64,000 nucleotides of DNA from Escherichia phage vB_EcoM_E9.1: the sequence record PP886230, one strand, 5' to 3'. The translations under genes and the position numbers were made by a program. Of this stretch, positions 59,472-61,445 are shown in pieces. How positions within the stretch are numbered: position 1 is the first letter of the stretch; every line of letters begins with the position of its first letter. Under the pieces are notes generated by a model. That model was given only the letters and a program-made list of their open reading frames with translations, had not been told where the DNA came from and ran no database searches.

Positions 59472-60109
59472 TTAAACACATAGAGACAGGGGAAGCTCCT
59501 AGTGAACAACCTTTATGTACAGGCGAATTGTTAAAATTCAGCCTGGACAAATGCGATCACTAGGATTCTCCCCAGGCTAAACCCCGTAATCATAGGTAGT
59601 CATAAGTAATCATATATAAACATTTATATGAGCACCGTAGAATCACAGAATGATTATATATGATTCAGTACTGATTAGTATAGACAAGATTGCTCAAGAA
59701 TGCACGGAAATGTGTGTGAATGATTCAGTACTGATATGCCACTAAGTAGGCAGAGGAAGTCTGCCGTACTTTGTAGTTTCCAAGCTCCTTTTCCATTTTG
59801 TAAATTACATCAAATGTAATCAAAAGTAATCACGCAATGATTAGTACTGAATTATTACTTTCACCTTAATTACAATTACCCTTTTACCCTTCGGGGTAAA
59901 ATTCAATTACCCCTTGAGGCTCCAGCAAAAAGTTGGTTAGTACTCCATCCTAAATCTCGATCCTAAAAATTTTGGAGTACCTATGAAATAAAAGTTGGAT
60001 CTTCGAAAGTTGAAATTTACGTTGGGACGTTTATGATTTGTGGGATATAATGATGTTTGTAGACGGGTAGTTCTCAAGAATATCAGTACTGAATGGTGAA
60101 AGAAAGTTA

Positions 60110-60137
60110 TTGACATTATGATTCAGTACTGTATAAT
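60110..60137 (+). promoter_or_regulatory. early-type sigma70 promoter without obvious gene
   Basis: TTGACA, 16-nt spacer ending in ATTCAGTACTG, TATAAT, then GTTTTACATAGAGAG (same downstream box as promoters at 61386-63919). Confidence 0.55.
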
Positions 60138-60459
60138 GTTTTACATAGAGAGATGAGTTGCCGCAAACAATTCATTCACTCTACCTCCTGTCGTGAGACA
60201 GTACAGAAAGATAGTTCCTCCAATGGGTGGTACATCTTTTTGAACCTCATATGAAAATTGTAATAACAGTACTGATATTAACAGAATGGTGTCAGTACTG
60301 ATTTTAATCTAAAGCATTATGCCACCAGCACAAGCTGGTGGATTCCCTCTAACAGTATTCAGTACTACATGATAGTCTTCATCCTCCTAGGGTAACATAG
60401 TGAGGGCTATGATGGCAGTACTGAATACTCCCTTTCAAAAGATAGATCTATGGTATAGT

Positions 60460-60650
60460 ACTGACGGATTTTGGGCGTAGTTACCCTGGATGGATTTTGG
60501 ACGTAGATATGTCTAGCCCTCCAGAAGTCTGGAAGTAAAGATGGCTATCCATCTAGACGGCTAAACGGCTAGATTTCTGGATGGCTAGACGTTTGGACGG
60601 CTAAACGGCTAGATGGGTACACGTCTGGAAGTATAGACGGCTAAATCAAA
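60460..60650. repeat. iteron-like direct repeat block
   Basis: GACGGCTAAACGGCTAGAT at ~60557 and ~60597 plus a partial third copy at ~60637; GGATTTTGG(G/A)CGTAG at ~60467 and ~60491; TCTGGAAG repeated. Confidence 0.6.
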
Positions 60651-61261
60651 ATTTTATTTTGTTTTTCCAATAGTTCCCCTACCGCGTGGGGATAGTTTCC
60701 CCGCAGTATCTGAAGTTAGATTTTTCTGAATCTGGAATCATTATCTTATAAACTGGGGGCAATGTCAACGGCCTGGCCGGATATTTTTAAAAATTTTTTC
60801 AGTACTGAATTTTGGGCGTAACTATGCACCCGATGGGCTTGAGTCTTTCTCGACTTGATGGAACTATTATACAGTACTGAAAAAATAAAGCAATACCCTG
60901 GAAGCAAAAAAGTTTTAATTAATTTGCTTGCTATCCTGGGCCGGACTATGGTACTATATTTCAGTACTGAGAAAGTGCGTTTACCTGCTAGGGTGCGGGA
61001 GTCTATCCTTTTTTTATATCTTGAATTTTGGACGGATCTTCCCACCCCCTGGGGTATCCGCTTTCTCGCGTCTATGTAGTAATTATACGCTTTTTCAGGA
61101 TCAAGTCAATACCTAAAAACAAAATAATTGAAAATAATTTAACGCGTTTAAACGGCCCGTAACGCCCTGGATTGTTGGGAGTGGTGCAAATGTATAGCTT
61201 AGGTGTATTAATGCGTTAGAATGCGTCTGAGGCCGTTTTATGGGGTGTAGTAGTGATTTGG

Positions 61262-61353
61262 TTGATTCAGTACTGAATAATAGTACTCCTATATAGAAAG
61301 ATAGTTCCCCTGGATTGATTCAGTACTGAATAATAGTACTCCTATATAGAAAG
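61262..61353. repeat. 39-bp direct repeat containing ATTCAGTACTGAAT palindrome
   Basis: TTGATTCAGTACTGAATAATAGTACTCCTATATAGAAAG at 61262-61300 and again at 61315-61353. Confidence 0.75.
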
Positions 61354-61385
61354 AAAACTATTTTAAAAGTATTTGTAGAAAGTAC

Positions 61386-61445
61386 TTGCACCGTACTGAT
61401 AAAAGCGTATAATGTTTTACATCGAGAGCGGGAACACTTCCCGCT
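61386..61445 (+). promoter_or_regulatory. early promoter + 5-prime leader hairpin
   Basis: TTGCAC, 16-nt spacer, TATAAT, GTTTTACATC, then hairpin AGCGGGAA-CAC-TTCCCGCT and SD AAGAGAG. Confidence 0.65.

Follow-up and report, generated by a model that had tools for sequence, protein, structure and literature searches.

The 1.94 kb of untranslated, repeat-rich DNA at positions 59472-61410 of the window (the whole 64,000-nt stretch analysed here) probably forms the junction between the unique DNA of the genome and a terminal repeat (DTR) of ~21 kb. Position 59745, which the region spans, would be the physical left end of the virion DNA and the first base of the DTR. To its right lies a non-coding, conserved leader of 1.66 kb (59745-61410) that is best explained as a set of cis-acting sites, among them a long array of boxes like those bound by the methionine repressor MetJ. 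We would give this explanation as a whole a probability of about 0.6. Direct support comes from the position of the terminus (by homology), the absence of coding, the conservation of the leader, the promoter within it, the match to met boxes and the phyletic pattern of the arrays. The source phage is an Asteriusvirus, that is, a PBECO4/121Q-like jumbo coliphage. A sequence-only reading had described most of the elements of the region; all of these were found, at positions that were exact or off by 1-2 nt. The features are as follows.

59472-59744, + strand: unique-side non-coding tail, directly left of the DTR, with a hairpin at 59484-59578 and an AGTACT-rich hypervariable stretch at 59630-59732
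59665-59674 and 59725-59734: TCAGTACTGA palindromes in the unique-side tail
59733-59761, + strand: candidate left cut-site motif, GATATGCCACTA, cut, AGTAGGCAGAGGAAGTC; one occurrence in the window
59745-59770, + strand: predicted terminal hairpin, AGTAGGCAGA-GGAAG-TCTGCC-G-TACT, starting at the genome's putative first base; -6.9 kcal/mol (DNA), z = -4.7
60110-60137, + strand: first early-class sigma-70 promoter, TTGACA-16-TATAAT, 12/12 consensus positions, with the TCAGTACTG palindrome in the spacer
60145-60310, + strand: predicted structured non-coding transcript or leader with four hairpins, the last (60267-60300) made from two CAGTACTG copies and followed by a T-rich tract
60507-60642, unstranded: tandem array of met-box-like 8-mers, 13 contiguous boxes at 60539-60642 and two more in register at 60507 and 60523
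60740-60768, - strand: leftward sigma-70-like promoter, TTGACA-17-GATAAT, 11/12, directed toward the array and the genome end; consensus match only
60962-61095, + strand: cross-genus conserved block, flanked by CAGTACTGA palindromes, with GGGTG (60991-60995) and CACCC (61043-61047); ...CCGCTTTCTCGCGTCTATGTAGTAATTATAC
61082-61109, - strand: second leftward sigma-70-like promoter, TTGACT-16-TATAAT, 11/12; consensus match only
61262-61354, + strand: 53-bp tandem duplication, with ATTCAGTACTGAAT and AGTACT in each copy; copy number varies in relatives, with one in ph0011
61386-61469, + strand: promoter and hairpin leader of the first early gene, TTGCAC-16-TATAAT at 61386-61413; conserved in the alignment

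A terminal-repeat boundary was among the candidates raised from the sequence, and comparison with the termini of related phages bears this out and places the boundary at 59745. Eight independent DTR-containing Asteriusvirus records share a terminus at the equivalent base, five as record starts and three as record ends in reverse complement, and the terminus of the source phage is placed by homology to such relatives at 95-97% identity. It has been established by PhageTerm, coverage, restriction digests or PFGE that Asteriusvirus and other RaK2-like jumbo phages (fEgEco12, G17, Sharanji and CBB) have DTRs of 20.7-22.5 kb. For fEgEco12 the PhageTerm value is 20,993 bp, with which restriction digests agree, and for G17 coverage gives ~20 kb; ELP-22 and Sharanji were assigned to the DTR class by PhageTerm, and a DTR is annotated in the record of vB_Ec-M-J. 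Within ELP-22 itself, record positions 1-21,279 recur from 352,211 onward and the 274 nt to the left are single-copy. Five records also have a common right end, ...GGGCGGGTAACCT (in short form ...GGGTAACCT).

The sequence around the terminus is conserved as ...AGTACTGATAT(G/C)CCACTA, cut, AGTAGGCAGAGGAAGTC, or in short form GATATSCCACTA, cut, AGT. The GTACTGATATGCCACTAAGT part of this motif is found in Klebsiella phage RaK2 too, and the records of Serratia phage BF and Xanthomonas phage XbC2 begin at the homologous base, 11 nt ahead of GAAGTC. Concatemers would be cut at this motif by the terminase or a partner nuclease, so that virion DNA starts at 59745, and the first bases of the genome could then form the terminal hairpin, which is without variation across the aligned Asteriusviruses. 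The packaging site proposed earlier is upheld in part: a terminus at 59745 implies a packaging or cutting signal there because the terminase must cut at that point, while the cutting itself is something we infer. The published papers on these DTRs report that the repeat exists and how long it is; term searches in them returned no account of the cut-site motif, of the 1.66-kb leader or of anything within it.

Conservation changes abruptly at the same base. The mean pairwise difference is 0.33 immediately left of 59745 as against 0.06-0.10 to its right and 0.134 in the flanking CDSs, so that among Asteriusviruses the leader is better conserved than the genes on both sides of it. Conservation is lowest in the unique-side tail, with differences of 0.24-0.33 (mean of seven Asteriusviruses) and many indel columns; its hairpin at 59484-59578 has a predicted energy of -21.2 kcal/mol (z = -5.35). 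The boundary in composition that had been noted between the AT-rich and GC-richer blocks is also real, GC rising from 0.32-0.34 (55-60 kb) to 0.39-0.41 (60-63 kb) with a flip in the sign of GC skew.

Read inward from the end, the leader would comprise an early-class sigma-70 promoter directed inward, a set of TCAGTACTGA palindromes, 13-15 met boxes and the promoter that precedes the first early gene (likely start codon, 61470). The orphan early promoter reported at 60110 is present with its 12 consensus positions intact. It lies 366 nt inside the genome end and points inward, with a start at ~60145 and no ORF downstream, and consensus-like promoters directed inward lie at equivalent positions in RaK2, BF and XbC2. 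Its 16-mer GTATAATGTTTTACAT recurs without a change in the early promoters at 61407, 61867, 62550 and 63110 and has no copy in the 59.7 kb to the left. Among relatives the promoter is near-invariant, a single A/T difference affecting the last base of the -35 hexamer.

Short repeats and palindromes are dense throughout. Twelve copies of the TCAGTACTGA palindrome lie in 59472-61410, ten of them in the leader, and the window has 51 copies of CAGTACTG where 0.9 would be expected, 12 of the 51 being inside the 1.9 kb. A second direct repeat, GGATTTTGG(G/A)CGTAG, is confirmed at 60467-60481 and 60493-60507 (+ strand), with variants at ~60806-60820 and 61022-61034; the motif is found in XbC2 as well, adjoining the conserved block. 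That block, at 60962-61095, can be aligned with RaK2, Serratia BF, Yersinia phage fHe-Yen9-04 and Xanthomonas XbC2. The long direct repeat carrying ATTCAGTACTGAAT, described as 39 bp, is an exact 40 nt (61262-61301 and 61315-61354, period 53). Of the hairpins described, that with the TTCG loop is at 59883-59900 (+ strand; -5.4 kcal/mol, z = -2.2), is conserved and has two copies in ph0011; the others (59745-59770, 60322-60341 and 59484-59578) bring the range of z to between -2.2 and -5.4.

Scored with the MetJ met-box matrix of Augustus & Spicer, the array at 60507-60642 reaches 94.3 bits over 13 adjacent boxes; elsewhere in the window no score exceeds 12.9 bits, and 40 shuffles gave at most 19.0 bits and at most three boxes. 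If an operator is defined as two or more adjacent 8-bp boxes that together score no less than the consensus (12.58 bits), and singly no less than a quarter of it, the array is one. The same scan, applied as a positive control to the 7.5-kb met locus of E. coli K-12, which carries metJ, ranked the metJ/metB operator (31.2 bits) and the metF operator (24.9 bits) as its top two. Per box, the phage array scores 7.3 bits as compared with 6.2-7.8 in the E. coli operators, with half of its boxes reading GGCT instead of the consensus GTCT. The array has periods of 8, 16, 32 and 40 nt, and its lag-8 autocorrelation is 0.52 versus 0.25 +/- 0.035 in shuffles. Among relatives its copy number differs in steps of 8 nt only, with the register kept. 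The direct repeats of GACGGCTAAACGGCTAGAT do exist (60556-60574 and 60596-60614, with a partial copy at 60636-60646), but they had been taken for iterons and are instead part of this 8-bp-periodic array.

On these grounds MetJ is predicted to bind the array. No promoter-like site was found within 60440-60740 and no methionine gene lies nearby, and this is not the classical layout of an operator; an array without an overlapping promoter fits a decoy or an architectural role better. The likeness to a MetJ operator would therefore be one of predicted binding, not of regulatory layout. None of 5,426 E. coli genomes matched the array in a blastn search, natural operators being too short to be detected in this way. 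The true binder could also be a phage ribbon-helix-helix protein with a specificity like that of MetJ.

Among other phages, arrays of 8-15 boxes are present in the Vibrio T5-like phage Pontus, in Eneladusvirus (fHe-Yen9-04) and in Mimasvirus (XbC2), and shorter runs in the Klebsiella T7-like phage KPV811 (4+2 boxes) and Serratia BF (4+4+3); in annotated records the arrays fall within features labelled as terminal repeats. Array-matching records come in 77 of 78 and in 50 of 51 cases from Enterobacterales, Vibrio, Aeromonas or Pseudoalteromonas hosts, and the orders containing these hosts are the only ones to bear MetJ. The exception is the Xanthomonas phage XbC2, which has an array although Xanthomonadales is absent from the orders reported to have MetJ. 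Since the lineages that carry arrays have little else in common, the simplest common binder is a host protein. Three phage families without relationship to one another appear to have evolved or acquired MetJ-box arrays, in a manner that tracks host MetJ. The array is not essential for having a DTR, because the matrix scan found no met-box array in T5, T7 or RaK2. The distance from array to terminus ranges from ~50 nt in T7-like phages to ~0.8 kb in the source phage. Arrays at the ends of IMG/VR contigs are overcounted, since tandem repeats break assemblies, and a blastn search with a 36-box array from IMG/VR returned no match, low-complexity masking being the probable cause. We found no description of MetJ-box arrays in phage terminal repeats in the literature.

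If MetJ does bind, the SAM-loaded form (SAM being its corepressor) would be expected to polymerise cooperatively along the ~110-bp array, which is three to four times the length of any natural operator and would be present in two copies per genome. The most likely consequence, although speculative, is that the array soaks up MetJ during entry and replication of the phage DNA, and that the synthesis of methionine and SAM is thereby derepressed. Alternatively, or in addition, a MetJ filament might build, close to the genome end, a protein-DNA structure with a part in DNA entry, end protection or end cutting, which is likewise speculative.

It is also possible, if rather unlikely, that the region chiefly encodes one or more small regulatory RNAs, of ~100-165 nt from the promoter at 60110 or leftward from 61109 and 60768, and that the DNA repeats are secondary. 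The predicted transcript at 60145-60310 has a terminator-like end and is strongly structured (-50.6 kcal/mol versus -32.2 +/- 3.8 in shuffles, z = -4.8), its 33-aa ORF has a stop codon in most relatives, and the 60110 promoter that would drive it is almost unchanged in the aligned genomes. The inverted repeat at 60991/61043 is conserved as well, and by RNAalifold its GGGTG and CACCC arms pair with one compensatory change, in XbC2. However, the covariation term is negligible (-0.3), and a structured RNA in the 60962-61095 block was considered and rejected for this near-absence of covariation in spite of the conserved inverted repeat. Rfam 15, searched at gathering and E-value thresholds, gave no relevant match, the sole one being a sub-threshold, chance hit to SCARNA7 (22 bits, where the gathering score is 65). 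The small RNAs suggested earlier are thus possible but unproven, with a structured transcript predicted on the one hand and no Rfam family matched on the other. The conserved elements moreover recur as motifs of DNA on both strands (palindromes, met boxes and GGATTTTGGGCG), and an RNA would leave both the terminus and the array unexplained.

A packaging site that serves phage proteins only, in which the array and palindromes bind the small terminase or an end-processing protein and MetJ has no role, seems improbable to us. The region does adjoin the cut site, the terminal placement of the arrays is repeated in three phage families, and in lambda and SPP1 the terminase as a rule binds repeated elements close to the cut site, a precedent that counts in favour of such a site. 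The packaging proteins of T5-like, T7-like and jumbo phages are unrelated, yet their arrays have one common consensus, which is that of the met box. Hosts are confined to MetJ-bearing orders, RaK2 retains the cut-site motif without an array, and the distance to the cut varies ~15-fold; each of these argues against a site for phage proteins.

Still less probable is a replication origin, in which the repeats would be iterons for an initiator, or the promoter without an ORF would prime an R-loop origin of the T4 type, with the minimum of GC skew as the start. A minimum of cumulative GC skew does lie near 59-60 kb, the region is rich in repeats, and the consensus promoter without an ORF and the structured transcript resemble the layout of T4 oriF and oriG, which consist of a promoter and an unwinding element. 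The skew maximum, however, is at 40 kb, just ~20 kb from this minimum and at a flip in gene orientation, and skew was set aside as a marker because its turns coincide with blocks of gene orientation and composition only 20 kb apart; the pattern therefore follows these rather than replication. The repeat units are 8 bp long, contiguous and matched to MetJ boxes, and not 17-22-bp iterons at the spacing of a helical turn. No initiator gene adjoins the region. A search for the DnaA box TTATCCACA with at most one mismatch found none in 59472-61410 and a count below chance across the window, and the same arrays are found inside the short terminal repeats of T7-like phages. The origin proposed from the sequence is thus without support, given the contiguous 8-bp MetJ-like units, the lack of DnaA boxes, the lack of an initiator gene nearby and a turn in GC skew that gene orientation and composition can explain.

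That the region consists of small protein genes missed by annotation (five to seven 'hypothetical proteins' in several automatic annotations, with short CDSs in the records of ELP-22, JP4 and the SD series, and a 99-aa ORF uninterrupted in five of eight genomes) is scarcely credible, since all nine candidate ORFs are frameshifted or stopped in at least one good-quality relative (e.g. UE-S1, ph0011, 121Q), their starts are GTG or TTG without a ribosome-binding site, and substitutions among relatives alter the amino acids of the 33-aa ORF. The earlier statement that no convincing gene lies in 59472-61410 holds: the longest ORFs are of 99 aa (60746-61045, minus strand), 74, 62 and 59 aa, no ORF is conserved in the region, and the neighbouring genes code for small hypothetical proteins. 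The more sparsely annotated records (121Q, BF17, ph0011 and PBECO4) have no CDS anywhere across it. The short 'hypothetical proteins' given for the region in several GenBank records are very likely spurious.

If the region is the DTR junction with its leader of cis-acting sites, the true chromosome start of the source phage is fixed at 59745, and a cut-site motif conserved across at least three or four genera would bear on the way in which the ends of long-DTR phages are set. The 'bewildering' terminal repeats found in DTR phages could be reread as arrays for the binding of host regulators, which would give them a concrete biochemical identity. Were MetJ captured in this way, the virus would rewire the methionine and SAM metabolism of its host, or handle its own DNA end, by DNA sequence alone; SAM supplies DNA methylation and restriction systems. 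A wider generalisation can be offered only tentatively, and we consider it doubtful: phages with fixed ends might carry in their terminal repeats oversized arrays of operators for host regulators, and these arrays would capture the regulator once the DNA end enters and so act as a device for takeover or entry without a phage protein. With the same reserve, the MetJ boxes of the source phage and of T5-like, T7-like and other jumbo phages, the Fur-box-like repeats in RaK2 and the DnaA boxes in T5 might all be instances of this. The same doubtful reading would have titration of MetJ turn on the supply of methionine and SAM, and a filament could ratchet, anchor or protect the incoming end. A literature search found no natural phage-borne operator array for a host metabolic repressor.

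The closest known systems are the Asteriusvirus DTR phages themselves, which belong to the same genus, have the same sequence and have 59745 as their first base. Outside this group the region resembles 'Repeat Region 3' of T5, which holds the injection stop signal (iss). That region is likewise a 1.2-1.7-kb untranslated stretch spanning the junction of terminal repeat and unique DNA and is conserved above its neighbouring genes, and a host DNA-binding protein, DnaA, has been suggested as its ligand. Met-box arrays lie in a region of the same kind in the T5-like phages Pontus and PR1. T5 itself has no met-box run. In T5 the region marks the far, right-hand edge of the left repeat and follows the pre-early genes, which run rightward; in the source phage it marks the left-hand edge and precedes the early genes. 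We dropped a mirror-image analogy with the left repeat of T5, in which the right end would enter first, because the pre-early genes of T5 are transcribed rightward. The paired DnaA boxes of the T5 type are absent from the region, and the GTGCAAATCCGAC (DRD) repeats from the window.

The left end of T7 consists of a 160-bp terminal repeat, a CCTAAAG array, the leftward promoter A0 and the early promoters A1-A3. Its layout is shared with the source phage, in that a gene-free terminus is followed by an array of short repeats, a leftward E. coli promoter, strong inward sigma-70 promoters and the first early gene. In T7 it is known experimentally that transcription draws the DNA into the cell. The T7-like phages KPV811, PGT2, PSK2 and NNA-G4 have met-box-like arrays at the end of the record or within ~300 nt of it, that of NNA-G4 being annotated as the right terminal repeat. 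The heptamers of T7, in contrast, have no met-box score, and its repeat is 160 bp as against 21 kb here. We rejected the notion that the CCTAAAG array and Repeat Region 3 of T5 are the same element as the phage array, as neither scores as met boxes.

The MetJ operators of E. coli are built, as is the phage array, from contiguous 8-bp boxes with the consensus AGACGTCT, and the phage sequence GGACGGCT AAACGGCT AGATGGGT AC is close to GGACGTCT AAACGGAT AGATGTGC AC of metF. A natural operator consists of 2-5 boxes and typically sits no more than ~75 bp from the start codon of the gene controlled; the phage array differs in its 13-15 boxes, without an overlapping promoter or an adjoining methionine gene. 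The two roles proposed for it have precedents in cosB of lambda, where IHF is a host DNA-binding protein that shapes the packaging site, and in sinks for regulators such as E. coli datA, which serves for DnaA, and synthetic arrays of transcription-factor decoys.

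The region at 59472-61410, for which the sequence-only reading had proposed a replication origin, a packaging site or a terminal boundary, is a terminal-repeat boundary and not an origin, and contains, by homology, the left physical terminus of the phage chromosome. Used as a 1.9-kb query it matches more than 30 Asteriusvirus genomes at 95-97% identity (PBECO4, 121Q, G17, fEgEco12, ELP-22 and others), which are jumbo myoviruses of 350-385 kb from E. coli and Salmonella. In the longer records (366-384 kb) it is located 19-21 kb from one end, and in ELP-22, whose record starts with a sequence within the region (AGTAGGCAGAGG...), the first 21.3 kb are the last 21.3 kb over again, gene by gene. 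The comparison with related phage termini recommended in the same reading gave a single answer: when the first 200 nt of ELP-22, fEgEco12, vB_Ec-M-J, BF17 and CRJP21 and the last 200 nt (reverse complement) of G17, WPEC3 and WPEC5 were aligned with the window, all eight genome ends started at one base, 59745. These shared ends are more than convention, because those of fEgEco12 were determined by PhageTerm (direct terminal repeat, DTR, of 20,993 bp) in agreement with restriction digests, those of G17 come from coverage, ELP-22 and Sharanji were assigned to the DTR class by PhageTerm, and the repeat is annotated in vB_Ec-M-J. The existence of the Asteriusvirus DTR is already published. The right end, ...GGGCTAAAGGGCGGGTAACCT, is common to five records, base-exact, about 21.4 kb rightward and beyond the window. 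Since the ELP-22 record stops 128 nt before the right terminus common to five other genomes (21279-21407), its stated DTR of 21,279 bp is slightly short; the published 8.3-kb DTR of UE-S1 was possibly mis-assigned, according to the fEgEco12 paper.

There is a sharp break in conservation at 59745. The 115 nt before it contain many indels and have a mean pairwise difference of 0.33, which falls to 0.06-0.10 over 59745-61260; this is lower than in the flanking coding sequences (0.134), so the gene-free leader right of the terminus (59745-61410) is more constrained than the surrounding genes. Directly left of the end every aligned Asteriusvirus carries (C/T)AGTACT...GATAT(G/C)CCACTA(A), and the sequence farther left is scrambled. 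Klebsiella phage RaK2 (Alcyoneusvirus) has an identical GTACTGATATGCCACTAAGT preceding a similar gene-free leader, and the records of Serratia phage BF (Eneladusvirus) and Xanthomonas phage XbC2 (Mimasvirus) start TATCT(T/G)T(C/T)CCTGAAGTC at the position homologous to 59745, 11 nt ahead of a conserved (G/A)AAGTC. The genome's first 26 nt form a hairpin (z = -4.7), the right cut falls in the 3' arm of another, and CTA(A)|AG is found at both genome ends, reading inward, a likeness that is only suggestive because there are two sites only. It is probable that the terminase recognises the conserved motif and cuts there. The exact cut motif common to several genera is a new point, as is the conserved gene-free leader. 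On the unique-sequence side, UE-S1 and ph0011 carry a 30-nt insertion between window positions 59587 and 59588 (alignment columns 449-478), absent from the window, which is a perfect hairpin, CTCTACAGAGAAGC..GCTTCTCTTTG, and looks like a terminator.

Genes in the window lie mostly on the plus strand, the exception being the paralogous minus-strand block at 40.4-54.6 kb, whose ELP-22 homologues are annotated 'regulator of chromosome condensation' (RCC1-like).

Features of the window and its leader, from left to right
174-2071, left edge of the window: three tRNA genes (Met-CAT, Asn-GTT, Thr-TGT)
41687-54576, minus strand: 11 or 12 consecutive paralogous genes of 370-430 aa each
about 54700-59471, plus strand: about 25 tandem paralogous genes of about 60 codons (MHKEYY...LIYRY)
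leftmost leader element: terminal hairpin
right of the terminal hairpin: TTCG hairpin
60110-60137: inward promoter, leftmost copy of the early-promoter 16-mer GTATAATGTTTTACAT
right of this promoter: strongly structured ORF-less transcript region (z = -4.8), with a terminal hairpin from two CAGTACTG copies
between that region and the 8-bp array: two GGATTTTGGGCGTAG motifs
60507-60642: 8-bp array
right of the array: two predicted leftward sigma-70-like promoters
right of these promoters: cross-genus block with a GGGTG/CACCC inverted repeat, kept in RaK2, BF, Yersinia phage fHe-Yen9-04 and XbC2
right of the block: 53-bp tandem duplication, its copy number differing among relatives
right-most leader element: first early promoter

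All that had been described here from the sequence is borne out. The direct repeats and hairpins are present, the long direct repeat being an exact 40-nt duplication; GC climbs across the region from about 0.33 to about 0.40, in keeping with the composition boundary; and the orphan promoter at 60110 agrees with the consensus at 12/12 positions. The impression that there is no convincing ORF also held. The longest candidates are 99, 74, 62 and 59 aa, and in an alignment with seven other Asteriusviruses every candidate is broken, by a frameshift or a premature stop, in one or more good-quality relatives; the region is thus non-coding, a protein-coding reading was rejected, and the short CDSs annotated here in some records are very likely spurious.

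All five exact copies of the 16-mer are right of the terminus. BF, XbC2 and RaK2 share the plan of the leader, with 1.4-1.8 kb free of genes and, about 270-330 nt in from the start, a consensus-like inward promoter; covariation in the GGGTG/CACCC repeat is minimal. A small RNA is predicted from the 60110 promoter and may well exist alongside the other elements. Early transcripts (61414-61440, 61874-61900) begin CATCGAGAGCGGGAACAC..., resembling the familiar initial transcribed sequence of T7 promoter A1 (ATCGAGAGGGACACGGCGA, T7 locus 498-520). Each early leader has a 5' hairpin, often with ATAGTTCC in its loop, a motif also found at 60208, 60669 and 61298.

A GTAC-centred palindrome is not peculiar to the leader. 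CAGTACTG occurs 51 times in the window (0.7-0.9 expected), 12 of them within the 1.9-kb region; GTAC is the window's most over-represented tetramer (2.9x expected), and AGTACT is present 227 times against 22 expected. Each of the three codon phases shows the excess, and so does intergenic DNA (3.2 and 4.9 per kb), and the nested palindrome is over-represented across the entire window (e.g. 633-63505). AGTACT pairs stand at the 3' ends of the genes of about 60 codons, and AGTACT is visibly frequent in the BF, XbC2 and RaK2 leaders also.

The chief new point concerns the repeats that had been called iteron-like, which appear to be a super-operator for the host methionine repressor MetJ, common to three unrelated DTR phage families. 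They form part of an array in which about 17 units of 8 nt follow one another without a gap. In the correct register these units read AGACGGCT AAACGGCT AGATTTCT GGATGGCT AGACGTTT GGACGGCT and so on; judged by their match, they are the tandem 8-bp met box of MetJ (consensus AGACGTCT). When the weight matrix and criteria published by Augustus & Spicer were applied to the entire window, the best run was one of 13 adjacent boxes at 60539-60642 (94.3 bits), with two in-register boxes upstream; the second-best run scored 12.9 bits, and the maximum in 40 window shuffles was 19.0 bits and 3 boxes. The metJ-metB-metL-metF locus of E. coli K-12, scanned identically as a positive control, had its two known operators in the top places, the one ahead of metB scoring 31.2 bits and the one ahead of metF 24.9 bits. 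Array length among Asteriusviruses (143, 151, 159 or 167 nt) varies in 8-nt steps only, so the register is preserved. The array is unlike a classical operator, since the promoter scan of the region found no promoter overlapping it and its length is three to four times that of any natural one. MetJ with its corepressor S-adenosylmethionine (SAM) would bind it. No publication linking met boxes with phages was found in the literature searched.

With the array as query, blastn matched only jumbo, T5-like and T7-like phages. In other jumbo phages the array lies 0.04-0.8 kb from the record start; the T5-like phages infect Vibrio, Aeromonas and Providencia; and in T7-like phages of Klebsiella and E. 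coli it is at most about 150 nt from a genome end.

Met-box arrays in individual phages
ELP-22: 14 boxes, 102.8 bits
Vibrio phage Pontus: 15 boxes, 111.7 bits
fHe-Yen9-04: 9 boxes
XbC2: 8 + 4 boxes
BF: 4 + 4 + 3 boxes
KPV811: 4 + 2 boxes

The same matrix scan found no met-box array in T7, T5 or RaK2. RaK2 keeps the cut-site motif and gene-free leader and has Fur-box-like sites where met boxes would be (e.g. GAGAATGATAATGATTCTC; RaK2 locus about 1232-1256, 1518-1542, 1750-1768 and 2584-2608), seven when up to 5 mismatches are allowed, where shuffles give 0.26; one site of similar sequence, GCGAATGAGAATCATTAC, is present in BF and fHe-Yen9-04. This hints that host-regulator sites are a wider theme of these leaders. 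In the T5-like phage Pontus (1320-1400, 1640-2060) the array has three DnaA-box-like TGTGGATAA sites on one side and T5 'DRD' repeat copies (GGTGCAAATCCGAC) on the other, a position that corresponds to the injection-stop region of T5; in Providencia phage PR1 it lies at 9607-9702, near the T5 shear point 9618. Where records annotate the array, the labels are 'repeat_region', 'Left terminal repeat' or 'R-LTR ... redundant region in virion DNA'.

A strict four-unit pattern found 40 stretches in IMG/VR against about 0.1 expected by chance, by our own estimate, which assumes a collection size and counts 20 specified bases. Among these stretches about a dozen are strong arrays (5-36 boxes). Several of the contigs measure 35-45 kb or 106-133 kb, and for several arrays, not all, the contig end is no more than a few hundred nt away, although tandem repeats also tend to break assemblies. 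The largest, 36 consecutive boxes (AGATGTCT/AGATGTCC, 356 bits), is at 7257-7544 of the uncultivated viral contig 3300031658_004036, 91 nt from its end.

MetJ is found only in Enterobacterales, Pasteurellales, Vibrionales, Aeromonadales and Alteromonadales. Hosts in these orders account for 77 of the 78 phage records matching the window array and, with the PR1 array as an independent seed, 50 of 51, Pseudoalteromonas now included. The sole exception with both seeds is XbC2. Its genus, Mimasvirus, is presumably also that of CBB. The hosts of CBB are Erwinia, Pectobacterium and Cronobacter. As the array-bearing lineages share little else, a host protein is the most economical candidate for their common binder.

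Other explanations fare less well. An origin primed from a promoter, as in T4, is still conceivable. If this were a packaging site bound by phage proteins only, it would be difficult to see why unrelated packaging systems share one consensus, or why the hosts are confined to those that have MetJ. A conventional replication origin is not supported: the region has neither DnaA boxes nor an initiator gene, its repeats are not of the type that an origin would have, and GC skew, suggested as a check, failed as an origin marker, its turns being merely 20 kb apart and tracking gene blocks. The skew of the small-gene array at about 54700-59471 is negative (-0.1 to -0.24), unlike that of the remaining plus-strand genes.

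The identification of the MetJ array merits a bench test; what the predicted binding would be for is speculative. The array, present twice per genome and amplified by replication, could act as a sink that draws MetJ off host operators, so that methionine and SAM synthesis would be derepressed. The repeat doubles the dose, may be first into the cell, and is where these compact genomes tolerate non-coding DNA; the sink alone, however, leaves the placement of the array in terminal repeats unexplained. It is also possible that a MetJ filament near the genome end has an architectural role in the entry of the DNA or in protecting or processing its end. This would account for the location, although the distance to the end ranges from about 50 nt to 0.8 kb, and such a role could be likened to that of IHF at lambda cosB, or to the part proposed for DnaA boxes in the T5 injection stop.
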